Below are positions 133 through 64,000 of a DNA stretch of 64,000 nt, in pieces. The stretch is from Abditibacterium sp. (lineage in GTDB: Bacteria > Armatimonadota > Abditibacteriia > Abditibacteriales > Abditibacteriaceae): assembly GCA_965199495.1 (NCBI GenBank), contig CBDASK010000003.1:3456001-3520000 (forward strand), written 5' to 3'. Every line of letters starts with the position of its first letter. Position 1 is the stretch's first letter. The notes below the pieces were generated by a model, which was given only the letters and a program-made list of their open reading frames with translations, had not been told where the DNA came from and ran no database searches. The position numbers and the translations under genes are program-made.

Positions 133-1935
133 TTATCGTCGTTGGAATTCGGGCGAACCCAGAATCAGCGCGCGGACTTTGGCGCCGTCGCCGGGAGTGG
201 TCTTAATTTCGTCTTGAATTGTCGAAAGCGATTGTGCGCTGAGCGGCGCGCTGAGCAGGTTGTCGGCGACAGTAGCCACGTCGGTGTTGCGGAAGGTATC
301 TTTTTCGATGGCGACATCGCCGATGCGGCCCGTCGTCAGCGACAAAGCGAAGTTGAGGCGCGAAATCAAGGCGCTCGACGAAACCCATTCCTGCGAGTTT
401 TCGGGGTAACCCGTCGGCGCCTGATAGCCCCACAACGGCTGGCCCATCGTCGCGATTTCTGAAGCGAGCGGGCGGCGCGGCAGGTTGCCGCGATTGTTGC
501 TGCGGTCGCGCGAGGAAAGTCCGATTAAAGTCAGCCACTGCCGTTGGCGCGGGTTGTCGGGGTCGGGCAGGGCGAAGGTGCCATCGAGCGCGCGCACCGC
601 AGAAACCGCGAATTCGAGCGGCGACTTGATTTTGGAACGATATGCGCCTTTCGAGTTGAATTCGGGCGTGGCAAAAAGCGCCGCGTAAACCGTTTTCAAA
701 TCGCCGCCCGAATCGGTGAACGACTTGGCGACGGCGTCAACGGCGGATTGGGGCGGCGCGTCGGCGATGAATCGCTGGCACAACTGAAACGCGATATGCT
801 TGGCCGTGGCTGGATTTGAGGCCAGAATATCCAAAACCATTTCGCCATCTTTCTGCCCTCCGCCAGCGGGAATGGTGTGGCCCAACACGGTTTTTGCGCC
901 GTTATCGTGCGCGAAGGGACGGAACATAAAGTTCCCATCTTGACCAACGCTCCAACCGGTGAAACAGCGCGCCACTTCGGTCACGTCCTGCTGCGTGTAA
1001 CCGCCATCAACGCCCAGCGTGTGCAACTCCATGATCTCGCGGCCATAATTTTCGTTGAGGCCGCCCGCTTTCTTTTTGACTTGCTGTTTGCCTTGCAAAC
1101 CGCGCTGGCCGCGTCTGGCGTTGACCCGCGTCGCGTTATCGGCGGTCGAGGTGGCGTTATCCAAATAAACCATCATCGCCGGGCTGTGGGCCGAGGCGCC
1201 CAGCAGTTCGCGAAACGAGGTGAAAACGTGCGGGCGAATCGTAGCGCGGTCATCGAGCAATTTGAGCGCGCTGACCTGCTTTTTGTTCACGTCGAGATTG
1301 AAGTGATTGCTCCAAAAGTCCACCAAAACTTCCTGCAACTGCCGCTTGGAATCGGTGGCGCGCGCCAGTTTGGCGGCGCTGAGTTCGCCTATCGCCTGAT
1401 ACAAAGTGCCGGGGTCTATACCGGCGGCCTGCATATCTTTGATCGTCTGCTCTTCGCGCTCGTTGAGAACCGTGGGCTTTTGCTGGCCCGGCGTGGCTGC
1501 TTGCCCGCCAGCGACGCGTTGCTGCTCCTGAATCGCGCGCCGGATTTTGCCGTTGTAGCCTCGATAGGCCAACAACAAATAATCGGGCGTCTGGCTCAAC
1601 AATTTGAGCGTGCCAAGTTCCGCGTCCAGCGCGCTATCGTCAATCGAACCGGCGTTGATTTGCCCGTTAATCCAACGATCCAATCCCATTTGCTTAACAG
1701 CAGCCACGTCGCCGGGACGCGGCCCAAACGTCAGACGATTGATCGCGTTGAGAATTTTCTCGTCGCCCATCAACGGCGCTTGCCACTTCGCGTCGGTGGA
1801 AAGGTTCGCCGCGTTCATCGCCGGAGCTTTTTGACCGGACGCTTTGGCGACAGGCTTGGGCGCGGCCCAGACCAGAGCGGGCGCAAAGGCCGCGCTCAGC
1901 AAAGCGGCTCGGAGCAAAAAAGAAGGACGTTTCAT
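133..1935 (-). CDS. DUF1800 family exported protein
   Basis: Signal peptide plus motifs NRLTFGPRPG, FWSNHFN, SPAMMVYLDN, NENYGREIMELHTLG and LILGSPEFQRR. Start placed at MKRPS. Confidence 0.88.
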   Translation of the reverse strand: MKRPSFLLRAALLSAAFAPALVWAAPKPVAKASGQKAPAMNAANLSTDAKWQAPLMGDEKILNAINRLTFGPRPGDVAAVKQMGLDRWINGQINAGSIDDSALDAELGTLKLLSQTPDYLLLAYRGYNGKIRRAIQEQQRVAGGQAATPGQQKPTVLNEREEQTIKDMQAAGIDPGTLYQAIGELSAAKLARATDSKRQLQEVLVDFWSNHFNLDVNKKQVSALKLLDDRATIRPHVFTSFRELLGASAHSPAMMVYLDNATSTADNATRVNARRGQRGLQGKQQVKKKAGGLNENYGREIMELHTLGVDGGYTQQDVTEVARCFTGWSVGQDGNFMFRPFAHDNGAKTVLGHTIPAGGGQKDGEMVLDILASNPATAKHIAFQLCQRFIADAPPQSAVDAVAKSFTDSGGDLKTVYAALFATPEFNSKGAYRSKIKSPLEFAVSAVRALDGTFALPDPDNPRQRQWLTLIGLSSRDRSNNRGNLPRRPLASEIATMGQPLWGYQAPTGYPENSQEWVSSSALISRLNFALSLTTGRIGDVAIEKDTFRNTDVATVADNLLSAPLSAQSLSTIQDEIKTTPGDGAKVRALILGSPEFQRR

Positions 1936-2160
1936 GGGCATCTCGCGGAAATTACCGCTTGCGCCTCGTCGTCCGACCAAAAAAGAAAGCGTTGCCCGGT
2001 GAGGAGAGATCACCGGACAACGCCAGCACCCTAAGACTATCTTTCAGTCCGATAGGTTGCGCATTGTCAAGTAATCTTGGCAAAAATCCTTTAATAGGTG
2101 AGACGAGAAATTGAGGCGTTTTAAAATGGGCTATTTATAGTATCAGCCCGCCGCTATTTT

Positions 2161-2607
2161 CTACTGCGCGCCATTGGCCATCGGTTGGGCGTTGCCCGTG
2201 GCTGGTGTCGCCGGAGCTGCGGGCGTCATTTTGTTTTTGCCGCCGGGCTTATCTATGGCTTTGGCCTGATCTTGCGTCAGTCCAGTCGCCTGCGCCATCG
2301 CCGCATAAAAAGTTTCGTTGGCCGCTTTGACGGCGGCTTCGCGGGCGCGCAGAGCGGTCGTCAATTGGTCTTTGACTTCGGGCGTTAGCGGTTTGCCGGT
2401 TTGAGCTTCAATGGCTTTGGCCATGCGGGGCGTCAGTTTTTTGCCCTGCTTTTTGCCCGCGCCCGCGCGCTTGCCAGCTTTTCCAGCTTTGCCAACATTG
2501 GGCGCGGGCGCTTCGGGTTGGGCATACGAGGTTTGGGCGAAACCCAACGCGCCAAGCGCGATGGTGGCGACCAACAGACGGGGCGCGAAATTGCGTGTAT
2601 TTTTCAT
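2161..2607 (-). CDS. Secreted helical protein, possibly Spy/CpxP-like
   Basis: Signal peptide ending SYA-Q; LTPEVKDQ and LTQDQ resemble LTxxQ motifs. Confidence 0.6.
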   Translation of the reverse strand: MKNTRNFAPRLLVATIALGALGFAQTSYAQPEAPAPNVGKAGKAGKRAGAGKKQGKKLTPRMAKAIEAQTGKPLTPEVKDQLTTALRAREAAVKAANETFYAAMAQATGLTQDQAKAIDKPGGKNKMTPAAPATPATGNAQPMANGAQ

Positions 2608-2644
2608 GCTAATTTGGAAAGAGAAACTAACGACTCACCTGCTC

Positions 2645-2672
2645 TTTGATGATTGCAATAAGTGATGGTTCC
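2645..2672 (-). promoter_or_regulatory. Putative ECF (RpoE-type) promoter GGAAC-N18-TCAAA
   Basis: Minus strand reads GGAAC catcacttattgcaatca TCAAA, about 40 nt upstream of the 2607 start. Confidence 0.45.
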
Positions 2673-2757
2673 GGCCCGAAAGGCCCGCGTAATAAAAGTT
2701 CAGATTAAGCGCGCTGGCAAAGTTTAAGAAGTTCCTTTTTTAGTTCAATTTCTCTGT

Positions 2758-2775
2758 TTGTGAAATTTTTCCCAA
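2758..2775. promoter_or_regulatory. Rex operator, probably autoregulatory
   Basis: TTGTGAA-ATTT-TTCCCAA has one mismatch to the consensus TTGTGAA-N4-TTCACAA and lies about 80 nt upstream of rex. Confidence 0.75.
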
Positions 2776-2857
2776 AGTCTGGCGCAAGGATTGTAAAATA
2801 AAGAGGGCGCGCTCTTTTGCAGCTGTGGGCGCGCCGTTGTTTTTGCAGGGAACACCA

Positions 2858-3502
2858 ATGGAAACCAGACCGCCCGACGGATTGACGCGCATTCCCGAAC
2901 CGACCATCGAGCGGCTGAGCGCCTATTTGCAATGCGTGCGCGTCTTGCGCGCCGAATCGCACGCCTCGGCTTCGAGCGCCGAAATCGCGCGGCGCACCGG
3001 CATTCACGCGGCGCAGTTGCGCAAGGATTTATCGTATTTCGGCGAGTTCGGCAAACCGGGTTTGGGCTACGATTTGGCGGCGCTCGAAGCGCATCTGGCG
3101 CGCATCATGGGTTTGGACAAAGAGCGCGATGTGCTGTTGGTCGGCGCGGGCAACCTGGGGCGCGCGCTTTCGAGTTATACCGGATTCGGGCGGCGTGGCT
3201 TTCGCATTGTGGCGGCGTTCGATGTGGACGCGCACAAAGTCGGCGCCAAATTGGGCGAGTGTCCGGTTTACGATTTGGGCGAATTAAAACGCGTCAACGC
3301 GAAGTTGGGCGCCGAAGTCGGTATCGTAGCGGTTCCGACGGCGGCGGCGCAAGCAGCCACCGACGCCTTGGTGGAAGCGGGCGTGCGGGCGATTTTGAAT
3401 TTCGCGCCCACAACGGTCGAAGTGAGCGAGAAAATTACTGTGCGTAACGTTGATTTGACATCGCAGATGGAGATTCTTTCGTATTACTTACGGGTGGAAT
3501 AA
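2858..3502 (+). CDS. rex: Redox-sensing transcriptional repressor Rex
   Basis: IPEPTIERLSAY, QLRKDLSYFGEFGKPGLGY, VGAGNLGRAL and AILNFAP motifs. Confidence 0.96.
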   Translation: METRPPDGLTRIPEPTIERLSAYLQCVRVLRAESHASASSAEIARRTGIHAAQLRKDLSYFGEFGKPGLGYDLAALEAHLARIMGLDKERDVLLVGAGNLGRALSSYTGFGRRGFRIVAAFDVDAHKVGAKLGECPVYDLGELKRVNAKLGAEVGIVAVPTAAAQAATDALVEAGVRAILNFAPTTVEVSEKITVRNVDLTSQMEILSYYLRVE

Positions 3503-3585
3503 GGCGAGCGCGCCAATAACGAAGAGATGGGGCGCGGGCTTTGCGGCGAAACGCGCATAATTGGGATTAAATCCAAGAGTTGACA

Positions 3586-4920
3586 ATGAATCATTACACC
3601 AACGGAAACGGCGGGGCCGCTGGCGCAACCAACGGCGCGCAGGGCGAAACGGCAATCGAGCCGGGCGAAATCACGGCTCTTCTGGAGCCGCGTCCCGATT
3701 TGCATCGCGCGCTGGAAGAGGCCATCGAAATTTCGGCGCGTCGCGGCACCGCGCTCGCCGACGTTGTCAAAGCCAACACCATTAAACCCAACGGCATTAA
3801 GCCCGGCGTGGCTGCTTCCGACGGCCAAAAGAATAGCGCGAAGAACGGCGCGAAAAATACTGGCAAAGAAGCCGAATTCGCCACGCCCGTCCCGCATCGC
3901 GACAATCTGCCGCCCGAAGCGCTCGAAGGCATTCGCTCGGTGGACATCATGCAATCGCTGGCGCCCCTCGCGCCGCGCATGAAATCGGTCGAACGCGAAA
4001 TCGAGCGCATGATCACCACGCCGGTCAAACTCGTCGCCGACATCGCCGGGCACGTTCTGGGCGCGGGCGGCAAACGTTTACGCCCGGCGCTGGCTCTTTT
4101 GGCCGCGCAAATCTGCGGCGACGACGGCGATAATCCGGCGCCACGCGCCGTGACCTGCGCGTGTTTGGTCGAATTGACGCACACCACGACGTTGCTGCAC
4201 GACGACGTGGTTGATGGAGCGACAACGCGGCGCGGCAAGCCCGCCGCCAATTTGGTTTGGGGCAACGAAACCAGCGTTTTGGTCGGCGATTATCTATTCG
4301 CGCAGGTTTTCGTGACGGCCTCGCGGCGCGGCATCGCCGAATTGATGCACCCTTTGGCGCACGCGACGGCGCAAATGTGCGCGGGCGAATTGCTGGAAAC
4401 GCAAATGCGCGGCTTCTGGGAGATGAGCGACACGCAATATCTCGAAATCGTGGCTTTGAAAACCGGCTCGCTGACCGAATGCGCCACGCGCATGGGCGCT
4501 CTGGCGGTCGAAGCGAGCGAAGAGCAGGTCGAGGCGCTGGGCAATTTCGGGCGCTTCATTGGCGTCGCGTTTCAAATCGTGGATGACGTGTTCGACGTGA
4601 CTTCGACTTCGGACGAAATCGGCAAACCCGTCGGCAACGATTTACGCGAAGGCGCGATTACGCTGCCGATGTTGTGGACGCTCAAACATTCGCCCGACGC
4701 CGACGAACTGCGCGATATTTTAGCGAGCGAAGAAAAAGAAGACGCGCAGGTTGTGCGCGCGCTGGAAATCATGCGCGCGGGCGACGCCGTCACGCGCTCG
4801 CTGAAACTGGCGCGCGATTACACTGACAAAGCCAAAGCGCAATTAGATATTTTCCCCGACAGCGAAGCGAAAGTCATGTTCAACGACATCGCCGATTACG
4901 TGTTGTCGCGGGAGAAATAA
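3586..4920 (+). CDS. Long-chain polyprenyl diphosphate synthase (IspB/HepT-like) with N-terminal extension
   Basis: GGKRLRP, first aspartate-rich motif LLHDDVVD..RRG, KTG, second motif FQIVDD and GKPVGNDLREG. Confidence 0.92.
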   Translation: MNHYTNGNGGAAGATNGAQGETAIEPGEITALLEPRPDLHRALEEAIEISARRGTALADVVKANTIKPNGIKPGVAASDGQKNSAKNGAKNTGKEAEFATPVPHRDNLPPEALEGIRSVDIMQSLAPLAPRMKSVEREIERMITTPVKLVADIAGHVLGAGGKRLRPALALLAAQICGDDGDNPAPRAVTCACLVELTHTTTLLHDDVVDGATTRRGKPAANLVWGNETSVLVGDYLFAQVFVTASRRGIAELMHPLAHATAQMCAGELLETQMRGFWEMSDTQYLEIVALKTGSLTECATRMGALAVEASEEQVEALGNFGRFIGVAFQIVDDVFDVTSTSDEIGKPVGNDLREGAITLPMLWTLKHSPDADELRDILASEEKEDAQVVRALEIMRAGDAVTRSLKLARDYTDKAKAQLDIFPDSEAKVMFNDIADYVLSREK

Positions 4921-4924
4921 TTTA

Positions 4925-5022
4925 GGGGACAGGAGAAAAGGGAGACAGAAAACAGGGATAAGCGACATATCAAATGAAATTCGCCTCACCTGTCTCCCTT
5001 GTCTCTTGTCTTCCGTCTCCTT
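4925..5022. repeat. Heptamer-unit imperfect inverted repeat (GGAGACA-like)
   Basis: ggggacaggagaaaagggagacagaaaacagg is mirrored by cctgtctcccttgtctcttgtcttccgtctcc. Confidence 0.55.
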
Positions 5023-5027
5023 GTAAA

Positions 5028-5603
5028 ATGCTCACGGCCCATCGCGTTTTTAAACGCTATGAATCGCGTTTGGTTTTGCGCGATCTCAGCTTTGAAATCG
5101 CGCCCGGCAGTTGCGTGGCCGTGCTGGGGCCAAACGGCGCGGGCAAATCCACTTTATTGCGATTGGTCGCCGGATTATTAACGCCGTCGCGCGGCGAAAT
5201 CTTGTGGCGAGGTGCAGCCACGCGCGGCCAGTGCGCGCTTAGTGCGCCCGATGCGCCGGTTTATCGTGAGCTAAGTTGTCTGGAAAACCTCAAATTTTTT
5301 AGTGGCGGCGCCGACAACGAAGCGTTGAGAACTCATTTGTCGAATTGGAACTTGGGCCAGCGCGCCAACGATTTGGCGGGCGAACTGTCGTCGGGACTTC
5401 GCGCGCGCCTGGGTTTGGCCGTGGCTGCCTGGTTCGAGTCGCCGATTTTGTTATTAGACGAACCTTCGGCGAACTTGGACGAAGCCGGACGCGAACTCGT
5501 CCAAACGTTAATCGCGGCGCAACGCGCGCGCGGCGTGACGCTGTTGGCCACCAACGATGCGCGCGATTTGAGTTGGTGCGATGGCGAAGTGCGCGTGAGT
5601 TAG
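5028..5603 (+). CDS. ccmA: Heme exporter ATP-binding protein CcmA
   Basis: Walker A GPNGAGKST, LSSG signature, LLLDEP; lies upstream of ccmB and ccmC. Confidence 0.85.
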   Translation: MLTAHRVFKRYESRLVLRDLSFEIAPGSCVAVLGPNGAGKSTLLRLVAGLLTPSRGEILWRGAATRGQCALSAPDAPVYRELSCLENLKFFSGGADNEALRTHLSNWNLGQRANDLAGELSSGLRARLGLAVAAWFESPILLLDEPSANLDEAGRELVQTLIAAQRARGVTLLATNDARDLSWCDGEVRVS

Positions 5604-5620
5604 CGCGTTAAACTCGAATT

Positions 5621-6319
5621 GTGACTTCGACTTCCCCCAACGCTACGCTTCGCGCTTCGCCGGTTTGGTGGCGCGGCGCGTGGGCCGTCGCCGTCAAAGA
5701 TTTCCGCTCCGAATGGCGTTCGCGCGCCGCGTTTAATGCCATCGCGTTGTTCTCGCTCGCCGCGCCAGTCGCGCTGGGCTACGCTTTAACTAATCTCAAA
5801 CTCGAACCCGAAGTTTTGGGCGGATTGTTGTGGACGACCTTATTTTTCGCCGCGATGGTCGGTCTGCCGCGCGCGTTCGTCAAAGAAGAAGAGAGCGGCA
5901 CATCGGCGCTCTTACGTTTGCATTACAGCGCGCAATCGGTCTTGTGGGGCAAAGTGTTGGGACAATTGATTCTATTATTGTCCACGCAAATCGCGGCGGT
6001 GCCGTTGTTTTTGCTGTTGTTTAATGCCAAAGTCGCGCAGCCGTTTTCTTTGTTGGCGATTCTGATCGGCGGCGATATTGGTCTGGCGATTTCGTCGTGC
6101 ATCGTCGGCGCGATGGCGGCGCAGGCGCGCGCGCGCGGCGCATTGTTTCCGGCTTTGGCGGCGCCGCTTTTGTTGCCGCTTTTGGCGACGCTTTCGGTCG
6201 CGACGGGCTTTGCTTTTGGCGCGCGGGGCGATATTTGGCCCGCCATGAAAGTGATCTTGGCCTTCGACGTGGCTCTACTCGCGGCATCGTGGATTTTGTT
6301 CGATTTTGTCTGGGACTAA
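5621..6319 (+). CDS. ccmB: Heme exporter permease CcmB
   Basis: KDFRSEWRS, F.KEEESGT, LAAPLLLP; multiple transmembrane helices. Confidence 0.88.
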   Translation: MTSTSPNATLRASPVWWRGAWAVAVKDFRSEWRSRAAFNAIALFSLAAPVALGYALTNLKLEPEVLGGLLWTTLFFAAMVGLPRAFVKEEESGTSALLRLHYSAQSVLWGKVLGQLILLLSTQIAAVPLFLLLFNAKVAQPFSLLAILIGGDIGLAISSCIVGAMAAQARARGALFPALAAPLLLPLLATLSVATGFAFGARGDIWPAMKVILAFDVALLAASWILFDFVWD

Positions 6320-6429
6320 GCACCCGTAGAGACACCGACTTGTCGTGTCTAAAACGTTTTAATATCCACCTATTTACGTTTTAGACATCCGCCCAGGGGG
6401 CACCCGGTCGGTGTCTCTACGGGTGCTTA
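6317..6429. repeat. GTAG-type REPIN, family A, with insertion in the right arm
   Basis: CGTAGAGACACCGACTTGTCGTGTCTAAAACG ... CGTTTTAGACA[tccgcccagggggcacccg]GTCGGTGTCTCTACG. Confidence 0.8.
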
Positions 6430-6489
6430 CTTCCATATGCAAAAGCTGACAGCCAAAGCTCACCTAATTCGTCCAAACTATCAATTCTC

Positions 6490-7134
6490 ATGAATATCTT
6501 GATTGGAATCTGGATTACGATTTCCATCGTCGCGGCGTTTCTGGTGCCCGAAGTGCGCGAACTCAACGCGACGCCCATCGCGTTTTTTCATGTGCCGATG
6601 GCCATCACCATGTTCGGTTGCTTTTTCGCGGCGGCGTTTTGCGGCCTCTGTTGGCTTTCTTATCGCGATGAACGCTGGGACGCGTGGTCGCTGGCGTGGG
6701 GCGAAGTCGGTTTTGCCGCCGGTTGCATTACGTTTCTGACGGGACTTGTTTTCGCGGGCGCCAACTGGGGCGCCTATTGGACGGGGGATCCGCAGCAGGT
6801 CGGCGTTCTGGGCACTTTGATGCTTTATGCCGCGATGCTTTCGCTGCGCTCGGCGATTGACGACGACGGCAAAAAACGCAATTTCTGGGCGGTTTACTCG
6901 CTGTTTGGTCTGTTAGTCGCGTGCTTTGGCGGCTATATTTATAGTCGCATCGTGCCGCCCAACGCGAGTTTGCATCCCAACGGCACGCTCAAAAATTCGT
7001 CGGCGATTTATAAGTTCGTGTTTACTTTCAATATTCTCGGCTTTTTTCTGTTGATGAGCCGCATCACGTTCTTGCGTGCTAAGCTGGAACGCGTCAGCAA
7101 CCGTTTGCGCGAGTTGAGTTGGGAGGCGATTTAA
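6490..7134 (+). CDS. ccmC: Heme chaperone/exporter CcmC
   Basis: FFHVPMA, tryptophan-rich NWGAYWTGDP, SLHP second His; follows ccmB. Confidence 0.85.
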   Translation: MNILIGIWITISIVAAFLVPEVRELNATPIAFFHVPMAITMFGCFFAAAFCGLCWLSYRDERWDAWSLAWGEVGFAAGCITFLTGLVFAGANWGAYWTGDPQQVGVLGTLMLYAAMLSLRSAIDDDGKKRNFWAVYSLFGLLVACFGGYIYSRIVPPNASLHPNGTLKNSSAIYKFVFTFNILGFFLLMSRITFLRAKLERVSNRLRELSWEAI

Positions 7135-7136
7135 AA

Positions 7137-7298
7137 ATGGGAAACAAAGAAATGTTCGTTTTGGCCGTCACGCTGATAACGTGGGCGGGCGTGTTTGTAT
7201 ATTTGGTTCGTTTGGACGGCATCGCCAAAAAACTGGAGCGCGAATTAAAATATCGCGAGGAAGAAAAATCGCCCGTCGAATGGGGTGAGCGTCCTTAA
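7137..7298 (+). CDS. ccmD: CcmD family small membrane protein (53 aa, absent from the ORF track)
   Basis: Manual translation MGNKEMFVLAVTLITWAGVFVYLVRLDGIAKKLERELKYREEEKSPVEWGERP: one TM helix then a charged tail, starting 2 nt after ccmC. Confidence 0.75.
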   Translation: MGNKEMFVLAVTLITWAGVFVYLVRLDGIAKKLERELKYREEEKSPVEWGERP

Positions 7299-7334
7299 AA
7301 AGGATGCGCGATTTTATAGCGTAACTGAAAAATT

Positions 7335-7928: not shown

Positions 7929-7943
7929 AACGCGCCCCCATTT

Positions 7944-9227: not shown

Positions 9228-9228
9228 A

Positions 9229-55028: not shown

Positions 55029-55035
55029 TGTTTTT

Positions 55036-55077
55036 GTTTCACACAAAGGGACAAAGATCGCACCAAGGGAACAAAGA
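55036..55077. repeat. CACAAAG-unit arm downstream of the GxxExxY gene
   Basis: GTTTCACACAAAGGGACAAAGATCGCACCAAGGGAACAAAG is a diverged direct copy of 55486-55526. Confidence 0.8.
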
Positions 55078-55082
55078 TTGGA

Positions 55083-55478: not shown

Positions 55479-55484
55479 TTCAAG

Positions 55485-55583
55485 AGTTTCACACAAAGGC
55501 ACAAAGATCACACGAAGGATACAAAGGAGTTAAAGAAAAATCTTTGTATCCTTCGTGTGATCTTTGTGCCTTTGTGTGAAACT
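55485..55583. repeat. Perfect 42-bp inverted repeat of CACAAAG units between leuS and the GxxExxY gene
   Basis: AGTTTCACACAAAGGCACAAAGATCACACGAAGGATACAAAG and its reverse complement at 55542-55583. Confidence 0.85.
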
Positions 55584-58230
55584 AAACCACGATATTCACC
55601 AAGCGCCCCGGCACTACCACAACCTTCCGCGCCACCTTACCCTCCATCGCAGCAGCCACGTCGGCGTTGCCCAACGCCAGCGCCTCCAAAACATCGTTCG
55701 CCAATCCAACCTCAACCGTCAGTCGCGCCTTCAACTTGCCGTTGACTTGAACCGGAATTACCACCTCATCTTCCTTCGCCACATCCGCATCGGCGCGCGG
55801 CCATTCCATCCGATAGAACGATTGCTCGAAGCCCAACTGCGAACCCAATTCGTCGGCGATGTGCGGCGCGAACGGACTCAGCAACAACAACAGATTCTCG
55901 ACCGCTTCGCCGTAAACCGCCGCGTTGCTGTTTTTGCCGTTGAGCCATTCTTGCAGCGCGTTCACCTCTTCCATCAGCGCCGCGATGGCCGTGTTCATAT
56001 TGAATCGCTCGATGTCCACGCTCACGCGCTCGATGGTTTGATGCGTTTTGCGACGCAATTTCTTATCGGCGCCGCTTTCGCCGCCGAGGTTGTCGCGCCA
56101 ATTAGCGTCGAACGGCTGCGCCAGACACGCGCGCCAGACGCGTTCGAGAAAGCGATAGGTGCCCGCGAAAACCGAATCCGATTCGCCGCGTTTCCATTCC
56201 ACATCTTGGTCGGGCGGCCCCATGAACAGCGTCATCATGCGCGTGGCATCGGCGCCGTATTGGGCAACGGCATCGTCCAAAGCCACGACGTTGCCCTTGC
56301 TTTTGCTCATCTTGACGACTTTATCTTCGCCGTTTTCTCCGGCGCCCGGCGCCAACATCGTCACCATGCCCTGCGTGAAGAGGCGCGGGAACGGTTCGTT
56401 GTGCGCCACCAAACCCAAATCGAACAAGACTTTGGTGAAAAAGCGCGCGTAAATCAGGTGCATCGTGGCGTGTTCGACGCCGCCGACGTATTGGTCAACC
56501 GCCATCCAACGCGCCAAATCGTCGGGATTAAACGGCGCATTGGCGTCGTGCGGCGAGCAAAAGCGCAGGAAATACCAACTCGAATCCACGAACGTATCGA
56601 GCGTATCGGTCTCGCGCCGCGCCGGATTGCCCTCGCTGTCGCGCGCGTCTTGCCACGAAGCCGAAGTTTCGAGCGGGTTGCCGTGTCCGGTAAATTGAAC
56701 GTCTGTGGGCAGCAAAACCGGCAATTGATCGAGCGGCACGGTTTCGAGCGCGCCGTCCTCGCGGTAAACGATGGGGATCGGGCAACCCCAGTAGCGTTGG
56801 CGGCTCATGCACCAGGGCCGCAAACGATAGTTGACCGTCGCCTCCCCAATCCCCTCCGCTTCCATATATTCCGTGATTTTCTGGCGCGCGTCGTCGGGAT
56901 TCCAACCGTTGAAGTCGCCGGAACCTGTCAGCCATCCCTCGTATTTATCGGTGTGGGCTGAGACGATATTTGTGTAAGCCTGACCGCTTGGAAAAATTTC
57001 GTCTAATTCTTCCTGTGTTGGTTCTTCGTCCTCCCCCTTTGAGGCAGCGAGTTCGTGTATTTTCCTTTCTTGATCTTCATCCCACTCGTTGTTTTCAGGG
57101 TCACCAAAGCACGGATTGTCGAATAAGTCCTCCGGCAAAACAACCAATTTAATCGGCAAATCATATTTTTTGGCGAAGTCGAAATCGCGTTCGTCGTGGG
57201 CGGGCACGGCCATCACGGCGCCGCTGCCGTAATCGCTCACCACGTAATTCGCCAGCCAAATCGGAACCGCTTCGCCGTTCATCGGGTTGGTGCAATAGGC
57301 GCCGGTAAACATCCCTTCCTTGGGAAAATCCGTCGAACGGTCGCGCTGCGCGTCCTTCTGACGCGCCACATGATCCCGAAACTCGCGCGCCGGCCCTTCC
57401 CATTCCGTGTCCGCAACCAACGCATCAACCAGAGGCGCATCGGGCGCCATCACCAGGTAAGTCACGCCGAAAACCGTGTCCACGCGCGTGGTAAAAACTT
57501 CGATTTCGCCCTCTCTGTCCCGCAACGGAAAGCGAAACGTTACGCCTTCGCTGCGCCCGATCCAATCGCGTTGGGCTTTGATGACGCGTTCGGGCCAATC
57601 GGTTAAAGTCTCCAAATCGTCCAACAATCGCTGCGCGTAGGCGGGCGTGTTGGCGAACCATTGCGTCAACTCTTTCTGCTCGACGAGGTTGCCGCAACGG
57701 TCACATTTTCCGTCTTTGACCTGTTCGTTGGCCAGCACGGTTTGATCGTTTGGGCACCAGTTGACGAGGGCCGATTTGCGTTCGATGAGACCGGCGTTAT
57801 AAAGCTGAATCCACAGCCATTGCGTCCATTTGTAGTAGTCGGGTTTGCAAGTCGCGATTTCGCGCGACCAATCGAAGGCGATGCCCAATTTATCGAACTG
57901 TTCGTGCATCTGTCCGATACATTTGTCCGTCCACTGCGCCGGATGGACGCCGCGATTGATGGCGGCGTTTTCGGCGGGCAAGCCAAAGGCGTCCCAGCCC
58001 ATCGGGTGCAAAACGTTATAGCCGTTCATCACGCGATAGCGCGCGACGGCATCGCCGATGGCGTAGTTGCGAACGTGCCCGACGTGCAAAGCGCCCGACG
58101 GGTAAGGGAACATATCGAGGTAATAAAACTTCGGTTTATCGGGGTCGAAAGTGGTGTCGAAGAGGTTATTCTGGCGCCAGTTGGTTTGCCATTTGGTTTC
58201 GATTTCGGATGGGTTGTAGCGAGTTTCCAT
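55582..58230 (-). CDS. leuS: Leucine--tRNA ligase
   Basis: MFPYPSG.LHVGH, GWDAFGLPAENAA, FTTR, AVPAHDERD, SRQRYWGCPIP, KMSKS. Confidence 0.98.
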   Translation of the reverse strand: METRYNPSEIETKWQTNWRQNNLFDTTFDPDKPKFYYLDMFPYPSGALHVGHVRNYAIGDAVARYRVMNGYNVLHPMGWDAFGLPAENAAINRGVHPAQWTDKCIGQMHEQFDKLGIAFDWSREIATCKPDYYKWTQWLWIQLYNAGLIERKSALVNWCPNDQTVLANEQVKDGKCDRCGNLVEQKELTQWFANTPAYAQRLLDDLETLTDWPERVIKAQRDWIGRSEGVTFRFPLRDREGEIEVFTTRVDTVFGVTYLVMAPDAPLVDALVADTEWEGPAREFRDHVARQKDAQRDRSTDFPKEGMFTGAYCTNPMNGEAVPIWLANYVVSDYGSGAVMAVPAHDERDFDFAKKYDLPIKLVVLPEDLFDNPCFGDPENNEWDEDQERKIHELAASKGEDEEPTQEELDEIFPSGQAYTNIVSAHTDKYEGWLTGSGDFNGWNPDDARQKITEYMEAEGIGEATVNYRLRPWCMSRQRYWGCPIPIVYREDGALETVPLDQLPVLLPTDVQFTGHGNPLETSASWQDARDSEGNPARRETDTLDTFVDSSWYFLRFCSPHDANAPFNPDDLARWMAVDQYVGGVEHATMHLIYARFFTKVLFDLGLVAHNEPFPRLFTQGMVTMLAPGAGENGEDKVVKMSKSKGNVVALDDAVAQYGADATRMMTLFMGPPDQDVEWKRGESDSVFAGTYRFLERVWRACLAQPFDANWRDNLGGESGADKKLRRKTHQTIERVSVDIERFNMNTAIAALMEEVNALQEWLNGKNSNAAVYGEAVENLLLLLSPFAPHIADELGSQLGFEQSFYRMEWPRADADVAKEDEVVIPVQVNGKLKARLTVEVGLANDVLEALALGNADVAAAMEGKVARKVVVVPGRLVNIVV

Positions 58231-58257
58231 TGGATTAAGTTAGTTTGCGATAAATCT

Positions 58258-58400
58258 CGTAGGGGCGGGGTTCCCCCGCCCGAAACGTCAATGCGACGAT
58301 AACGGTAATGCCAACCCGTGACGTTTCGGGTGGGGGATATGCGGCGAATTCAACAAATGTCGGCGCGTAACGTTTTGGGCGGGGGAACCCCGCCCCTACG
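58258..58400. repeat. GTAG-type REPIN, family B
   Basis: CGTAGGGGCGGGGTTCCCCCGCCCGAAACG ... CGTTTTGGGCGGGGGAACCCCGCCCCTACG. Confidence 0.8.
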
Positions 58401-58409
58401 GGGTGCGAA

Positions 58410-59387
58410 TTATCGTGGCGTCGCCGTGGCTGCTTTGCCCGCCGGTTTCGCATCCAAACCCGCCAGCATATGCTGCAAGCCGAAGTGAATGCCGACTGTC
58501 ATCACCAACACCAAAACTCCAGCCCACAACAGCGCGAATTTCTCGTCGCGCGTGTAGGTAAAATATTTCAGATTCGGCAAAACCGCGCCCGCGCCGATAA
58601 ATAATAATCCCGGCAACGCCGGAATGTTCGGCAGAAACGTGATGCTCAATAACGCGCCCGAAACCAGCAACCACGTCGCGGCGGCGGGCGTGCGCCAGTT
58701 CATGCGATGAATCACGATGATGCCGAGCAGAAACGCTAAAAACAGGAAATCGCCGACGCCAATCGCGGGCATGGGAATCGAGAATCCGCTCCTCGCGGCG
58801 GCGTTGCCAATTTTCGGGCCTGCGGTCATCGCGGCCTGCGTCACCGGTTTGGCGGCTTCGCTCGCCATAATTTTAGAAATCGGGCCGTTAAACAAAACGC
58901 CCCAAATATCAATGATCGCGATAATTGCGCCGATTGGCCCCAACATATTGGCCGAGCGAATCATGCGCGCGAGGGAAAATCCGCCGAAAGTCGCCGCACA
59001 CAACAACGACGCGGCTTGAGCCGCAGTTGCGAAAACTTGCCCCGGCGAATCTTGAACGCCAAATCGGGGTAAACCGCCGACGAGCGGAAACAGAACGAAC
59101 TGCACGCCCAGCCACACCAAAACGCTGGCGACAAAAGCGGCGAGCGTGATCGGCAAACTCCATTCGCGGTGCGCGATACCCAGCGCGAACAACACGACGG
59201 CGCCGATATAGATTAGCGTTAATAAAACGTTGGACGCAATGGCGACGTAGATATTGGAAATCGACAGAAATGGTAGCGCGACGTTGAGCGCGAAGATAAA
59301 AAGGAGCCACCAAAACGGATGGATGCGGAGCAAGCCGTCGAATTTCTGGGGCGTCGTGGGCGCGTGCCATTCGGGTTCGGGATTCAC
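58410..59387 (-). CDS. Polytopic membrane protein with presenilin/SPP-like GxGD and PAL motifs
   Basis: About nine hydrophobic segments; IIDIWGV, IGVGDFLF and IPALP occur in canonical order. Confidence 0.7.
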   Translation of the reverse strand: MNPEPEWHAPTTPQKFDGLLRIHPFWWLLFIFALNVALPFLSISNIYVAIASNVLLTLIYIGAVVLFALGIAHREWSLPITLAAFVASVLVWLGVQFVLFPLVGGLPRFGVQDSPGQVFATAAQAASLLCAATFGGFSLARMIRSANMLGPIGAIIAIIDIWGVLFNGPISKIMASEAAKPVTQAAMTAGPKIGNAAARSGFSIPMPAIGVGDFLFLAFLLGIIVIHRMNWRTPAAATWLLVSGALLSITFLPNIPALPGLLFIGAGAVLPNLKYFTYTRDEKFALLWAGVLVLVMTVGIHFGLQHMLAGLDAKPAGKAATATPR

Positions 59388-59442
59388 CCAAGAGATTTTA
59401 CTTTATGAAGCGGGCGGATAAACTGGATTTAACAAATACATC

Positions 59443-60003
59443 ATGAAAGATCAACTCACTTCGCTCGCCGCACTCGCCTTTGTCGTCGCCGTGGCTGCTC
59501 CATCGCTGGCGCAGAATAAAAATTGGCGTATCAAGAAAACTTACGTTGTGCCGATGAAAAATGACGCCAAAGATTGCTGGAAATTGGGCGAACACGGCGA
59601 CTTGCACATCGTTTATCGCGGCGGGCGCGACGTGAAAATTACCAAAGACGGCAATGCATTAAACGATACGCATATCGCGCCCGATGGTCGCACGGTTGGT
59701 TATACAATCGGCACGCACAAGCCCTGCACCGATTGGAGTATCGGTGGCACGATGTTCGTCAATTCCAAATTAATCTTGATGCGCGACGGCAAGCCATTGC
59801 GGGCGTTTGAAGTGCCGGGCACGTTCATCGAAGGTTGGCGGTTCTGGAACCACGGGAAATATGTCGCCGTCGGTTCGCGCTGGCATCACGGCGTCGGTTA
59901 TGTGCGGCTGTTCGATGTCAAATCGGGCAAATTATTGGAGCGGATGACAACGCCGGAAGCGGAAAATAAAAAGTTGAAGTGGGCGGCGGATTTGACGGTT
60001 TGA
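59443..60003 (+). CDS. Hypothetical exported protein, beta-propeller-like fragment
   Basis: Signal peptide; IAPDGRTVG, W.FW..GK.VA, LFDVKSGKL. Confidence 0.7.
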   Translation: MKDQLTSLAALAFVVAVAAPSLAQNKNWRIKKTYVVPMKNDAKDCWKLGEHGDLHIVYRGGRDVKITKDGNALNDTHIAPDGRTVGYTIGTHKPCTDWSIGGTMFVNSKLILMRDGKPLRAFEVPGTFIEGWRFWNHGKYVAVGSRWHHGVGYVRLFDVKSGKLLERMTTPEAENKKLKWAADLTV

Positions 60004-60024
60004 ACGGCGAGTAAACTACTCTTT

Positions 60025-60354
60025 ATGACCGCACTTCAAGAAGCCGAGAAACTATTGCCCGCGCTGTCGCGCGCCGAGAAAGCGCAGCTTTTGCAATGGG
60101 TCATCAACGATTTGAGCGAATCGTTTCCCGGCATTGAAAGTCGCGCGGGTGTGTGCGGCGGCGAACCTTGCATCGTGCGCACGCGGATTCCGGTTTGGGC
60201 GTTGGAACAGATGCGCAGATTGGGCGTCGCCGAAGCGGATATTTTGCGCAGTTACCCCACACTTCGCGCCGAAGATTTGGCGCACGCTTGGGATTATGTG
60301 CGCGCGTACCGTGGCGAAATCGAGCATCAGATTGACGAAAACGAGGGCGCTTGA
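60025..60354 (+). CDS. DUF433 domain protein, putative antitoxin
   Basis: GVCGGEPCI.RTRIPVW, IL.SYP.L..EDL..A..Y. Confidence 0.9.
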   Translation: MTALQEAEKLLPALSRAEKAQLLQWVINDLSESFPGIESRAGVCGGEPCIVRTRIPVWALEQMRRLGVAEADILRSYPTLRAEDLAHAWDYVRAYRGEIEHQIDENEGA

Positions 60355-60355
60355 T

Positions 60356-60709
60356 ATGGCAAAACTTTATTCCAACGAGAATTTTCCTTTGCCCGCCGTC
60401 CAAGAATTGCGTCGCTTGGGACACAATGTTCTAACCGTCGCCGAAGCTGGGCACGCCGACCAAGCGATTCCCGCTGAAGAAGTTTTGGCTTTCGCCATGA
60501 GTTCGGGCCGCGCGGTTTTAACGATCAATCGTAAGCATTTCATCAAATTGCACCACGCGCAACCCAATCACGCGGGCATCATCGTTTGCACGCTCGACGC
60601 AGATTTCGTCGGGCAAGCGGGGCGCATTGATGAAGCGTTAAACGAGAATGTGGATTTGTCGGGCGCGTTGTTGCGCGTCAATCGGCTTCAACAGGGAGAA
60701 GCAAAATGA
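60356..60709 (+). CDS. DUF5615 PIN-like protein, putative toxin
   Basis: LYSNENFP, LR.LGH.V, RAVLTINRKHF, HAGII; follows DUF433. Confidence 0.85.
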   Translation: MAKLYSNENFPLPAVQELRRLGHNVLTVAEAGHADQAIPAEEVLAFAMSSGRAVLTINRKHFIKLHHAQPNHAGIIVCTLDADFVGQAGRIDEALNENVDLSGALLRVNRLQQGEAK

Positions 60710-60966
60710 ATGAAGTTCAGATTTTAAGAAAACGTGTCGCCGCTTTGGCGCTCGATTATTGCGAGGAAAGGATTACTTACCAACAGTTCCTTGATTCTAT
60801 TCACAGAAAGTCAGTAGACGATGAGGAAGATGGCGGCGCAGAAGAATTGGTTGATATGATTACGCACGGATCACACGTCGGCGGCTTTTTCGGCATCAGC
60901 CGTGCCCAAGGCGAAAAGGATCGCGCCGAAATTTTGGCGCTCATTGCTAAGTTGCAACGAGAATAA
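60706..60966 (+). CDS. Small hypothetical protein
   Basis: 86-aa ORF overlapping the previous stop (ATGA), with lower-GC codons. Confidence 0.55.
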   Translation: MNEVQILRKRVAALALDYCEERITYQQFLDSIHRKSVDDEEDGGAEELVDMITHGSHVGGFFGISRAQGEKDRAEILALIAKLQRE

Positions 60967-60970
60967 ACCG

Positions 60971-62230
60971 TTAGCCCAACCGCTCCATCACTTCACACGC
61001 CGCGCGCGGCCCGTTTTCGGCGCGCACGCGTTTGCCCAATTCGCGCGCATAGCCCGCGCAATCGTCGCGCGCTTCGGCCATAATTTCCAACGCGAAATCG
61101 CCGCGCGAACCGCGCTCATATAAACGCCGCGAAATGCTGCGACCGACGCCTAATTTGCGGATGCGGCGCGCGTTGTCGGGTTGGTCGTGCGCGTAGGGCA
61201 TCACCAATTGCGGGACTCCGGCGCGCAGAGCTTGCGCCGTCGTGCCCGCGCCGCCTTGATGAACGATGAGACTGGCACGCGGAAAAATCTCGGAGTGCGG
61301 CGCGTAACCAACTTCCAAAACGTTGTCGGGCCAATCTATGTTAGTCGGCTCGCCGGTTAGCAAAACGGCGCGTGCGTTTAAGCGCGTGGCGTATTCGGCG
61401 CTGCGATTCCAGAATTCGCCCGCATCATAAACCGCCGAACTGCCCAGCGTGAAGACAATTGGCGCGGCGCCCTGAATTGACCAATAACGCCAATCGTCGT
61501 CTTCGTCGAGTTGGTTTTCGTAGCCGTCGGCGTCGTAGAAGCAGAAGCCGGTGGCTGTTGTGTTCGATGGCCAATCTTTTTGCGGTTTGGCGAAGTTTGG
61601 AGAGAATAACGCGAGATTGCCAAACGGCGAGAATTGGCCCTCGAACATCGGATGTTCGCCTTCCAAACCCATTTCGGCGCGCAATTGTTCGACGGGCGCG
61701 ATCCAACTGCGCGTGCTGGCTTTGCCGATGCCGTAATAAATTTTGGGCCAAAGTGGGGCAAGAACGCGCAGGAAATCCAAAAATGGCGCGGTCGGTGGAG
61801 TCGCCACGTCGAGTTCACTCCACAGCGAAATCGGCGCTAAAACGCTCGAAAGCCATTTTTTATTTAACTTGCGCGCGGCCAACGGCCCGCCCAGCGCGGC
61901 GGGATGCGTCACAATTAAATCGGCGTCGGCGCAGGCTTCCAATAAATCATCGGTTTGCTCGCGGATGAAGGGCGAAAGCATTTCTTGAAATAAATAGCGT
62001 GGGCCGTCTTTGGCGTTCATCACGCGTTGGGCGAGCGGGCCGTATTCGTCGTGCGAGGGCAAATCGGGGCGAACCGGGCGAAACTTTAAGCCCAAACCTT
62101 CGACTTTGGCGCGATATTTGGGCGCCGTTGCGAGTATCGGTTCGTGACCGCGATTTTGCGCTTCGAGGGCAATCGCTAAATACGGGTGAATATCGCCCAG
62201 CGAGCCGAACGTGGAGAAAATAATACGCAT
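60971..62230 (-). CDS. GT1 family glycosyltransferase
   Basis: GSLGDIHP, VFTLGS, APHSEIFP..HQGGAGTT.QALRAGVPQL..P.AHDQPDNA. Confidence 0.92.
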   Translation of the reverse strand: MRIIFSTFGSLGDIHPYLAIALEAQNRGHEPILATAPKYRAKVEGLGLKFRPVRPDLPSHDEYGPLAQRVMNAKDGPRYLFQEMLSPFIREQTDDLLEACADADLIVTHPAALGGPLAARKLNKKWLSSVLAPISLWSELDVATPPTAPFLDFLRVLAPLWPKIYYGIGKASTRSWIAPVEQLRAEMGLEGEHPMFEGQFSPFGNLALFSPNFAKPQKDWPSNTTATGFCFYDADGYENQLDEDDDWRYWSIQGAAPIVFTLGSSAVYDAGEFWNRSAEYATRLNARAVLLTGEPTNIDWPDNVLEVGYAPHSEIFPRASLIVHQGGAGTTAQALRAGVPQLVMPYAHDQPDNARRIRKLGVGRSISRRLYERGSRGDFALEIMAEARDDCAGYARELGKRVRAENGPRAACEVMERLG

Positions 62231-63218
62231 GAACTATGTAAATCTGGGGCGCACCGGCGCCAAAGTGTCGCCGCTCTGTTTGGGCTGCATGAACTTCGGC
62301 TGGGGCACCGAGGGCGACGAAGCCGTCGCGATTATGCACCGCGCGCTCGATGCCGGTCTGAATTTCTGGGATACCGCCGATGTTTATGGCAAAGGCAATT
62401 CCGAAAAAGTCGTCGGCAAAGCGTTGGAAGGCAAACGCGACGAAGTGTTTCTGGCCACCAAAGTTCACGGCAAAATGGGCGACGGGCCAAACGATGAAGG
62501 CAATTCGCGCCTGCACATCATCAAAGGCTGCGAAGACAGTTTGCGCCGTTTGAACATTGACCACATCGATTTGTATCAAATTCACCGCCCGCAAAACGAT
62601 ATTCCCATTGACGAAACGTTGCGCGCATTAGACGATTTGGTCACATCGGGCAAAGTTCGCTACGTCGGCACTTCGACCTTCGCGGCCTATCAAATCGTCG
62701 AAAGTTTGTGGGCCAGCGAAAAGTTCGGCATCAACCGTTTCGTGTGTGAGCAGCCGCCGTATAATCTGCTGGATCGGCGCATCGAACGCGAACTGTTGCC
62801 GGTTTGCCAAACTTACGGTTTGGGTGTGATTCCGTGGAGTCCGCTCGGTGGCGGAATGTTGACGGGCAAATACAAACGCGATGAACCCGCGCCCGCAGGT
62901 TCGCGCTTTGCCGATGGCAAGTTTCGCGGCAAACCGGTTTCGGACGCGACGTGGGATGTCGTCGAAGGTTTGCGCGCTTTGAGCGAAGACAAAGGCGTGA
63001 AGATGGACGCGTTCGCTCTGGCGTGGGTGGGCGCGCAAAAAGGTGTGACGAGTCCGATTATCGGGCCGAGTTCGATGGAGCAGTTGGAAGATAATCTCAA
63101 GGCAATGGATATCGAAATTACCGAAGATGACAACAAGCGCGTTGACGAACTGATCGCGCCGGGCACATCGGTCGCCGAGTTTTATAGCGCCGACTGGAAA
63201 GCGCCGCTTTATCGGTAG
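62229..63218 (+). CDS. Aldo/keto reductase
   Basis: LGRTG.KVS.LCLG, DTADVY, ATK, SLRRL..DHIDLYQIH, GKVRY.G.S, WSPLGGG. Confidence 0.95.
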   Translation: MNYVNLGRTGAKVSPLCLGCMNFGWGTEGDEAVAIMHRALDAGLNFWDTADVYGKGNSEKVVGKALEGKRDEVFLATKVHGKMGDGPNDEGNSRLHIIKGCEDSLRRLNIDHIDLYQIHRPQNDIPIDETLRALDDLVTSGKVRYVGTSTFAAYQIVESLWASEKFGINRFVCEQPPYNLLDRRIERELLPVCQTYGLGVIPWSPLGGGMLTGKYKRDEPAPAGSRFADGKFRGKPVSDATWDVVEGLRALSEDKGVKMDAFALAWVGAQKGVTSPIIGPSSMEQLEDNLKAMDIEITEDDNKRVDELIAPGTSVAEFYSADWKAPLYR

Positions 63219-63255
63219 CGTCTCTACGGGCGTATTGACAGGAATCAAAACCACC

Positions 63256-64000
63256 ATGAAAATCTCAATTCCTTTTCTCGCAATGGCAAGTTGCGCTCTG
63301 CTCTCGCCGATTTCTCAAGCCATGCCCACTGCTCCGCGTCTGGTCGGCAAAGTTTTTCCGTTGGGCGCGACCGATGAAAAATCCGAGATTGCGTTGGGCG
63401 GCGCCTATTTTTCCGGCAAAGGCTGGCGCGACGATGCTCAATCGAAAGGTTCGCTTTTGCCCGGCGTGCGCTGGCAACTGTTCGGCCTGAACGGCGCTGG
63501 GCCGAGCGTGACCAGCGACAAAGGCCAAATTGACGATGTGCCGCAATCTTATTACGCCCATCTGCGCGAAAAAGTGAGGGGCGAGAATGCCATGCTGGCG
63601 ATTTCTAACGCTGGCCCCGGCGCGCAGCCACGTCTGCCGCGCGCGCAGAACCTGAATCAGGAAACCTATCAACGCGCCGTGGCTGCTCTTCTGCGCGCGC
63701 AGGGTTTGAACGTGACTCGCGCCAAATTAACGCAGTTGATGCGCGTAGACCTCAACGGCGACGGCATCGAAGAAGTATTGATGACGGCGCAATCGCGGCC
63801 TGATTACGGGCACACATCCGAAGCAAGAAAGGGTGATTATTCGCTGTTGGCGCTGCGCTATGTGGATCATGGCGTCGTCAAAACGGCGGTTTTAGATTCG
63901 AGCATTTCAACCAAAAACGTGGCGTTTTCGGCGCCCGGCTATTGCGAATTGATGTGCTGCGTGGATGTAGATGGCGACGGCAAAATGGAAATTGTCACGA
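63256..64000 (+). CDS. Hypothetical exported protein, truncated by the window end
   Basis: Manual translation starting MKISIPFLAMASCALLSPISQA is open to the end and contains two DxxGDG motifs (DLNGDGIEE, DVDGDGKME). Confidence 0.75.
   Translation, partial: MKISIPFLAMASCALLSPISQAMPTAPRLVGKVFPLGATDEKSEIALGGAYFSGKGWRDDAQSKGSLLPGVRWQLFGLNGAGPSVTSDKGQIDDVPQSYYAHLREKVRGENAMLAISNAGPGAQPRLPRAQNLNQETYQRAVAALLRAQGLNVTRAKLTQLMRVDLNGDGIEEVLMTAQSRPDYGHTSEARKGDYSLLALRYVDHGVVKTAVLDSSISTKNVAFSAPGYCELMCCVDVDGDGKMEIVT

Follow-up and report, generated by a model that had tools for sequence, protein, structure and literature searches.

A dispersed DNA word of an Abditibacterium chromosome is spaced strand by strand and resembles DNA uptake sequences

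The DNA uptake sequence (DUS, GCCGTCTGAA) of Neisseriaceae and the uptake signal sequence (USS, AAGTGCGGT) of Pasteurellaceae are the closest described systems to the DNA word reported here, and the available part of one source describes uptake sequences solely from these two families (PMC1626085). In the accessible portions of the published accounts, both are described as originating by substitution at poorly conserved sites (PMC2817400, PMC2397512), and nearly all of the genomic traits given below are common to them (PMC1626085, PMC2817400, PMC2397512, PMC3630211). With single-stranded DNA, one strand of the DUS transforms better, as cited in the part of PMC12061091 that is accessible. The word examined here came from a sequence-only reading of a window of 64,000 nucleotides of Abditibacterium sp. 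(Armatimonadota; assembly GCA_965199495.1, contig CBDASK010000003.1, positions 3,456,001 to 3,520,000), in which the 9-mer CGTGGCTGC was proposed as a candidate uptake-like signal. Our literature search, outside of which most subscription journals lay, yielded no paper on uptake sequences in Abditibacterium and nothing on the same-orientation spacing of uptake sequences.

The window (coordinates 1..64,000) belongs to the 4.72-Mb contig (C3) of the source genome (G000). It holds 32 exact copies of the 9-mer, 17 on the forward and 15 on the reverse strand, each where the sequence-only reading had placed it, against a mean of 0.98 and a maximum of 4 in 100 dinucleotide shuffles, and all 32 lie within called genes. 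Eight of the nine one-mismatch sites that had been named were recovered, while near 785 nothing closer than three mismatches lies within 12 bases; the GC content, taken as about 58%, is 56.4%. Far from being confined to the window, the 9-mer occurs 1,780 times on C3 (863 +, 917 -; 0.38 per kb), with copies in every 100-kb bin, and it is the top-ranked 9-mer of the genome against an order-5 Markov model (1,783 versus 496). The 9-mer is thus over-represented as claimed, but the full word is longer, CG(C/G/A)CGTGGCTGC(T/A), with C in 79% of copies at -3, G in 85% at -2 and T or A in 78% just past the end, in agreement with the earlier remark that CGC, CGG or CGA often precede it. Within the word, substitutions are rarest at G2, T3 and G5 and commonest at the last C. 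The consensus is sharp (1,780 perfect copies versus 3,213 with one mismatch, compared with 140 versus 2,700 for the reversed word), perfect copies far exceeding the level implied by the one-off class.

Our own gene calls (3,755 genes in the source genome, with atypical islands under-called) place 1,616 of the 1,780 C3 copies within genes, 17 times the 87-101 obtained in five synonymous shuffles. The suggestion that copies lie in several frames and orientations was borne out, since all six frames are enriched (observed/synonymous null: 34/4.8, 125/20.6, 681/28, 561/11, 157/24.8 and 58/3.6). Under a codon-pair model with proteins held fixed, a null that is itself contaminated by the word, three runs gave 236-268 copies, a sixfold excess in the real genes, and for the commonest 12-mer the excess is about 23-fold (629 observed versus 20-33). 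The peptides read from the window copies (VAA, AAT, SH at 7558, 18774 and 41087, and QPR at 63624) are correct. Genome-wide, 741 of 1,809 VAA and 631 of 1,404 AAT tripeptides are encoded by the word, through the rarest Ala codons, which had rightly been called non-preferred (GCT 14,725 and GCA 8,476 versus GCG 77,364 and GCC 49,594). Corrected for composition, the enrichment is 40-50-fold in short spacers versus 21-22-fold in genes, the raw density being lower in spacers. The force that maintains the word acts on DNA and not on protein, be it selection or drive. A codon or protein artefact is ruled out by the synonymous and codon-pair nulls, a transcription signal by the nearly equal numbers of sense and antisense copies in genes (840 versus 776), and a local repeat or assembly artefact by the genome-wide spread and by the contigs of run X1, possibly the sample of origin, which match without differences. 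No population variant fell within a word copy among 40 of 3,377 variant rows, too few to be informative.

The distribution of the copies along each strand is a new feature. Below 500 bp, pairs of copies on the same strand occur at 0.04-0.28 of expectation; the ratio climbs to 0.43 at 500-700 bp, 0.65 at 700-1,000 bp and 0.79 at 1-1.5 kb, reaching about 1 further out, whereas pairs on opposite strands stay at 0.8-1.5 of expectation throughout, with a 1.9-2.3-fold excess below 50 bp. Between 50 and 500 bp there are 37 same-strand versus 211 opposite-strand pairs (p=9e-31). In the window itself only 7 of 31 neighbouring pairs are on the same strand, and the close inverted pair 15779/15808 had been correctly pointed out. 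Each strand is thus tiled separately, with gaps more even than random (coefficient of variation per strand 0.72-0.79 after the top 2% of gaps were dropped); evenness had been proposed as a check, but its strand specificity had been missed. Gene boundaries are ruled out as the cause by the pairs inside single genes (34 same-strand versus 208 opposite-strand at 50-700 bp), and a general avoidance of short direct repeats by nine informative control words in the same genome, whose same-strand pairs reach 0.69-2.9 of expectation below 500 bp (a tenth word was too rare). The same exclusion was found in 374 kb of a relative (G011), and the unrelated word GTACGGTCGA of another family member (G017) shows one close same-strand pair where 16.7 are expected (first 100 forward sites).

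Since exclusion is confined to copies on the same strand, the step that reads the word must be specific to strand or direction. In a toy occupancy model, whose hand-set parameters make it an illustration rather than a fit, additive benefit gives no exclusion and orientation-blind saturation gives exclusion in both classes of pairs, while saturation per strand at 0.6-0.9 kb reproduces the observed pair correlation. The spacing rules out an orientation-blind reader and sets a length scale near 1 kb. The direction of reading could not be deduced from weak sites around strong ones, which show no 5'/3' asymmetry. In 600 kb from six USS-rich genomes, USS pairs show a weaker form of the pattern: same-strand pairs number 10 against 31 expected at 50-200 bp and 41 against 63 at 200-500 bp, opposite-strand pairs 23 against 31 and 57 against 62 (50-500 bp: 51 versus 80, p=0.014). 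This same-strand tiling of USS appears to have gone unnoticed in the literature searched. Enterobacterial Chi shows no exclusion: of 571 forward sites in one genome, the first 100 form 13 close same-strand pairs where 5.5 are expected.

The sequence-only reading had set Chi and the FtsK-orienting polar sequences (KOPS) aside as strand-polarised, and the chromosome agrees. The KOPS-type GGGNAGGG switches strand near 2.1 Mb, where a dnaA-like gene (2.03) and parS (2.16) lie, and near 4.3 Mb, therefore the chromosome has two normal replichores. While 296 of 380 KOPS (78%) are on the leading strand, the word is at 51-54%: 1,081 of 2,112 for an 11-mer form (p=0.29) and 957 of 1,780 for the 9-mer, a slight bias (p=0.0016). 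Unlike GGGNAGGG, the word does not switch polarity at the origin or terminus region, and this lack of replichore polarity rules out a lagging-strand or KOPS role. A pattern search of the genome found no dif site, and the GC skew of C3 is almost flat in spite of its clearly polar KOPS. The expected scarcity in foreign DNA was also seen: the two small contigs hold 0 copies versus 14.6 expected and 2 versus 38.3, and islands hold 21 copies in 138 kb. Ribosomal RNA genes have none in 4.5 kb and spacers of the clustered regularly interspaced short palindromic repeats (CRISPR) one seven-mer in 4.75 kb, both stretches being too short to tell. A CRISPR array with 131 repeats begins at 2,766,475 of C3. 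As the word is chromosome-wide, robust to the codon-pair null and without strong replichore skew, none of the three computable outcomes that the sequence-only reading had named against itself, namely confinement to the window, loss under such a null and strong skew, was observed.

A 12-mer form is in excess in just three of 401 genomes of the phylum (1,323 copies in G000, 420 in G004 and 1,024 in G011; all others fewer than 50), and dispersed copies of the 9-mer number 1,783 in G000 and 1,411 in G011. These three genomes form one clade, with support 100/100, in a ComEC tree of 26 rows from which G023 and second fragments were left out as too short. As had been suggested for relatives, there are dialects: the word of G004 is GGACGTGGCTGGTGTC, shifted from that of G000 and G011, and the 13-mer ACGTGGCTGGTGT has 1,685 copies in G004 versus 10 in G000 and 5 in G011. 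In orthologues of G011, which are 86% identical, 100 of 151 G000 sites are identical versus 39% for random 8-mers. Compared with three motif-less relatives, 4-10% of G000 sites lie close to a gap (background 6%), which is little or no excess of indels, and their amino-acid identity is 0.48-0.52 versus 0.66-0.68 in the background. The word thus arises by substitution at poorly conserved, tolerant residues. Many copies in G004 are GTAG-headed inverted pairs, and its coding copies also reach the same consensus by in-register substitution. About 1,300 GTAG-headed elements of G004 (within one mismatch) hold the word core, in head-to-head pairs and tandem runs; they are either a repeat element that has acquired the signal or the form that is optimal for the G004 dialect where nothing constrains it.

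Other members of the family carry words of their own, several of which are palindromes round AGTACT. Of six genomes of one genus, three have 2,261-2,770 copies of TCGAGTACTCGA and another has 144; this palindrome (core GAGTACTC) was seen in G020, G024, G042 and G022 and at loci L310, L315 and L324, in coding contexts and at densities that reach about one per kb, as a word like HIP1 (highly iterated palindrome 1) outside cyanobacteria. In G020 it avoids itself below 500 bp, with 1 pair against 22 expected under 200 bp and 22 against 36 at 200-500 bp. Further palindromic words, GCAAGTACTTGC, AAAAGTACTTTT and TCAAAGTACTTTGA, occur in G014, L003 and L321, in L319, L320, L322 and L323, and in L004, respectively. 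Asymmetric words are found in G017, where GTACGGTCGA has 2,981 copies as terminator-like inverted pairs and as singles in genes (loci L330, L097, L213 and L304), and at locus L316, where AAAGTACGCC forms inverted pairs after genes and single copies within them. Of 26 other family genomes, 7 have more RAGTACK than its reversed control, and most of the others have far less; several word-less family genomes of 4-6 Mb hold only 8-15 copies. GTAC as such is extremely rare in G000 (observed/expected 0.11; CTAG 0.04) and in most word-less genomes of the family, the opposite of what the AGTAC-centred words show. Two contigs of G005 (C98 and C508) are rich in GAGTACT while the rest of that genome is not, and are either mis-binned or recently acquired from a word-bearing lineage. 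Samples of 100-200 kb from G002, G006, G009, G010 and G012 showed no conspicuous dispersed word.

Turning to candidate machinery, ComEC turned up in all 27 family genomes, and ComEA, DprA, PilB/PilT and secretins in all five genomes tested, including the three with the motif. The competence genes sought by the sequence-only reading are therefore present, but they have no discriminating power, because ComEC occurs in every one of the family genomes and DprA and pili in the motif-less G009. More restricted is a gene for a ComZ-like protein of 1,300 residues that ends a pilB-pilT-pilC-pilD-pilin locus. Within the genus it is tandem in exactly G000 (C3:872,871-880,963), G004 and G011, and nine of ten others have one strong copy. 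The protein is 57-58% identical between G000 and G011, whose median orthologue is 89% identical, and a neighbouring minor pilin is equally variable (49%). Searches of Pfam and PDB sequences and of Foldseek returned nothing for this large pilin; for the G004 copy, a model of residues 107-1306 (pLDDT 72.7) aligns with Thermus ComZ (6QVI) and also with ice-binding solenoids. ComZ is a proposed tip DNA receptor in the accessible part of PMC6561018. In L312, a close relative whose housekeeping genes are 78-92% identical, the ComZ-like gene is single and the motif scarce, with 6 CGTGGCT in 23.6 kb versus 27 in the matching stretch of G000, and the word-bearing loci of G017 and L316 both have tandem ComZ-like pilin genes. 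An AddAB-like operon is present in all ten motif-less genomes of the genus; RecBCD, AddAB and AdnAB were not found with an AddB query and the RecC and UvrD families in G000, G004 and G011 (95, 92 and 87% complete), each of which has a single helicase of the UvrD family and no RecC. None of 14 genomes from other genera yielded AddB either, and about half of these show no dispersed word of any kind in the DNA examined. In motif-less relatives the AddAB-like operon adjoins sucB (G009, L270; G012, L271); in G000 the place next to sucB, near 2,587,000 of C3, lacks it and none was seen elsewhere.

We lean, with modest confidence, to the view that the word serves natural transformation as a self-recognition signal specific to this lineage, which would make it a third, independent counterpart of DUS and USS, read one strand at a time. 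A reader in the path of type IV pilus, ComEA, ComEC and DprA would favour word-bearing fragments, and homologous recombination of those fragments would spread the word. One site per strand would suffice within about 0.6-0.9 kb, a site on the opposite strand being counted separately. As a speculation, the reader may be the tandemly duplicated, fast-evolving ComZ-like tip pilin. A broader proposal, that independently evolved self-DNA uptake words run through the whole family in many dialects, asymmetric and palindromic, read strand-wise by variable ComZ-like tip pilins, with the tiling, seen in Pasteurellaceae USS too, as the footprint of that reading step, we put forward only tentatively. Most genomic hallmarks fit the uptake reading, and the word behaves like a DUS or USS in the genome and may belong to that class, but several observations weigh against it. 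Its competence genes are shared by word-bearing and word-less genomes. Uptake in H. influenzae, as described in the accessible parts of two papers, needs one site in any orientation, and close USS pairs add none (PMC1939737, PMC7811141). If uptake needs one site and is blind to orientation, close pairs should be excluded in either orientation, unlike what the word shows. The USS control is modest and of shorter range, and the 401 genomes searched included no DUS-rich genome for a Neisseria control. The density of the word is about half that of USS and DUS, and just 16 of 88 close inverted pairs lie outside genes. There is no conservation to G004, which is identical at 15 of 79 G000 sites versus 26% in the background. 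The fold match to ComZ is borderline (Z 8.4, rmsd 4.5, 168 aligned, rank 6 behind small beta-barrels); G041 has tandem pilins without a word in 24.6 kb, G022 has them with a palindromic word, and the duplication of the pilin, like the absence of an AddAB-like operon, is a single evolutionary event within the genus.

The strand-specific reading could also take place inside the cell. The word could be a directional repair or recombination signal, a strand-balanced analogue of Chi met by a helicase, nuclease or single-strand processor entering at random breaks, although we find this unlikely. As the first correctly oriented site would count, same-strand neighbours would be redundant, and it is the per-strand saturation model, and not the orientation-blind one, that reproduces the pair correlation; the depletion in foreign DNA fits as well, and the failure to find the AddAB-like operon in the clade means that end processing differs there. 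However, no known Chi reader is available, since RecC was not found and there is just one UvrD-family helicase, and the other genera in which AddB was not found weaken the link with the word. We looked for a leading-strand bias, for same-strand exclusion by enterobacterial Chi and for weak sites lying unevenly 5' and 3' of strong ones, and saw none of these. An improbable alternative is that the word is a by-product of repetitive extragenic palindromes (REP) and an HUH transposase, near-matches being rewritten towards a GTAG-headed repeat and close same-strand copies purged by single-stranded excision. Excision of the IS200/IS605 type on one strand would hit same-strand pairs alone, Y1 transposase or REP-associated tyrosine transposase (RAYT) genes exist in all three motif genomes, and in G004 the core sits inside the inverted-pair element and coding sites converge on the longer element consensus. 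Yet GTAG-headed elements with the core number only 11 in G000 and 4 in G011, against all the dispersed copies there, the GTAG REP of G000 is unrelated in sequence, G000 sites carry no insertion signature and the conservation between G000 and G011 is left unexplained. Linkage of the G004 elements to RAYT was not shown, as each transposase locus has at most one core-bearing element.

We give little credence to a methylation or nicking site for strand discrimination in mismatch repair, or a HIP1-like product of methylation-coupled repair. Since a site that is asymmetric would mark one strand only, each strand would need a series of its own; MutS is present, and the reach of mismatch-repair strand signals resembles the 1-2 kb scale of the word; the AGTACT palindromes and GTAC avoidance elsewhere in the family hint at a restriction-modification link for those other words. 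But the graded edges of the word are unlike a methylase site, and the embedded GCWGC, to which the sequence-only reading had attached a methylation-linked idea, is not over-represented (observed/expected 0.90), its final C being the weakest position. For the two C5 methylases of G000, no clear orthologue common to the clade turned up, in a comparison that left out a 335-residue one of G004 and in which adenine and N4 methylases were not searched for. We give slightly less credence still to sites of a chromosome-organising protein, SMC- or translocase-like, that would slide or spread in one direction and tile the chromosome. Even spacing, chromosome-wide uniformity and near-absence from the small replicons would suit it, but the word bears no relation to origin, terminus or parS and lacks polarity where KOPS are polar, no candidate protein was found, and rapid change between close relatives is not a property of parS or matS.

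The copies in the window are listed in the table below. The window also holds, at 44605-50669, a second pilus system: a gene for a 1,333-residue ATPase of the TadA/VirB11 family that carries a long extension at its N-terminus, and after it two genes, of which one has a weak match to a pilus membrane protein. A short intergenic inverted repeat at 11191-11214 matches the Rfam family CRISPR-DR28 (37 bits), but as a single copy it is probably no CRISPR repeat. Intergenic GTAG-headed REP pairs (GTAGAGACAC...) lie at 6326-6420, 10092-10187, 15637-15731, 35636-35729, 33874 and 63220; they have about 150 copies per genome and are unrelated to the word in sequence. A second REP family, GTAGGGGC, is seen at 58259/58392.

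Table. Exact copies of the word in the window, with the gene or orientation, the residues encoded and pairing.
Position	Strand	Gene or orientation	Residues	Remark
1492..1500	+	antisense within gene 133-1935(-)	AAT	
1700..1708	-	sense	DVAA	
3807..3815	+	prenyl-diphosphate synthase gene	GVAA	
5214..5222	-	ccmA-like gene	AAT	
5420..5428	+	ccmA-like gene	AVAA	
7394..7402	+	cysG N-terminal gene	AVAA	
7558..7566	-	cysG N-terminal gene	SSHV	
9280..9288	-	ccsB-like gene	AAT	
10891..10899	-	hemC	AAT	
14270..14278	+	antisense	AAT	
15779..15787	-	within gene	AAT	close inverted pair with 15808
15808..15816	+		AVAA	close inverted pair with 15779
16388..16396	-		AAT	
18774..18782	+	antisense	RSHV	
24499..24507	-		AAT	
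28106..28114	+	recG	AAT	
29694..29702	-	recG	AVAA	
29771..29779	+	recG	AAT	
32194..32202	+	antisense	AAT	
36423..36431	+		PVAA	inverted pair with 36466
36466..36474	-		AAT	inverted pair with 36423
41087..41095	+	P-type ATPase gene	SSHG	
43586..43594	-	nicotinate phosphoribosyltransferase gene	AAT	
46666..46674	-	TadA-family ATPase gene	AAT	
52083..52091	+		AVAA	
52480..52488	-		AAT	
53676..53684	+		PVAA	
55652..55660	-	leuS	DVAA	9-mer present at same place in G004
58425..58433	+	antisense	AAT	
59490..59498	+		AVAA	
63624..63632	-		AQPR	
63678..63686	+		AVAA	

If the word is an uptake signal, self-preferring transformation would have a third origin, in a distant and mostly uncultured phylum, and would thus evolve repeatedly; the several words of the family would be a ready-made set in which to pair words with receptors, and the word may be a key to transforming these bacteria. 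Its strand-specific spacing is a quantitative constraint on mechanism and predicts that a second site helps on the opposite strand only, a prediction that applies to systems of the H. influenzae type, where the USS control shows the same trend. If it is no uptake signal, it would be an undescribed directional DNA signal in cells without RecBCD or AddAB.

Compared with known systems, the word is most like DUS and USS, which are also short, non-palindromic, balanced between strands, present in all frames, made by substitution and sharp in consensus, more evenly spaced than random with some close inverted pairs, and scarce in acquired DNA, with dialects that follow phylogeny and competence genes in the genome. 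It differs from them in sequence and phylum, G000 has few intergenic terminator pairs and some words of the family are palindromic; its same-strand exclusion is stronger than that of USS, extends to 1-1.5 kb and is absent between opposite strands. Chi (RecBCD, AddAB) shares its asymmetry, its directional logic and its depletion in foreign DNA, but the word has no leading-strand bias, and RecC, RecB and AddA were not found in the three motif genomes. The GTAG-headed REP and bacterial interspersed mosaic elements recall G004, where the word core lies within such inverted pairs, whereas in G000 91% of copies are single, in genes, and without GTAG head or hairpin, an exact GTAG head being found on just 2 of the 1,780. 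Thermus thermophilus ComZ (PDB 6QVI) has a beta-solenoid with which the predicted model of the duplicated 1,300-residue protein of the pilus locus aligns at a borderline level. HIP1 (GCGATCGC) of cyanobacteria is hyper-abundant and frame-independent like the word, and likewise of unclear function, but the word is non-palindromic and the GCWGC embedded in it is not over-represented; it is the AGTACT-centred palindromes of other family members that closely resemble HIP1.

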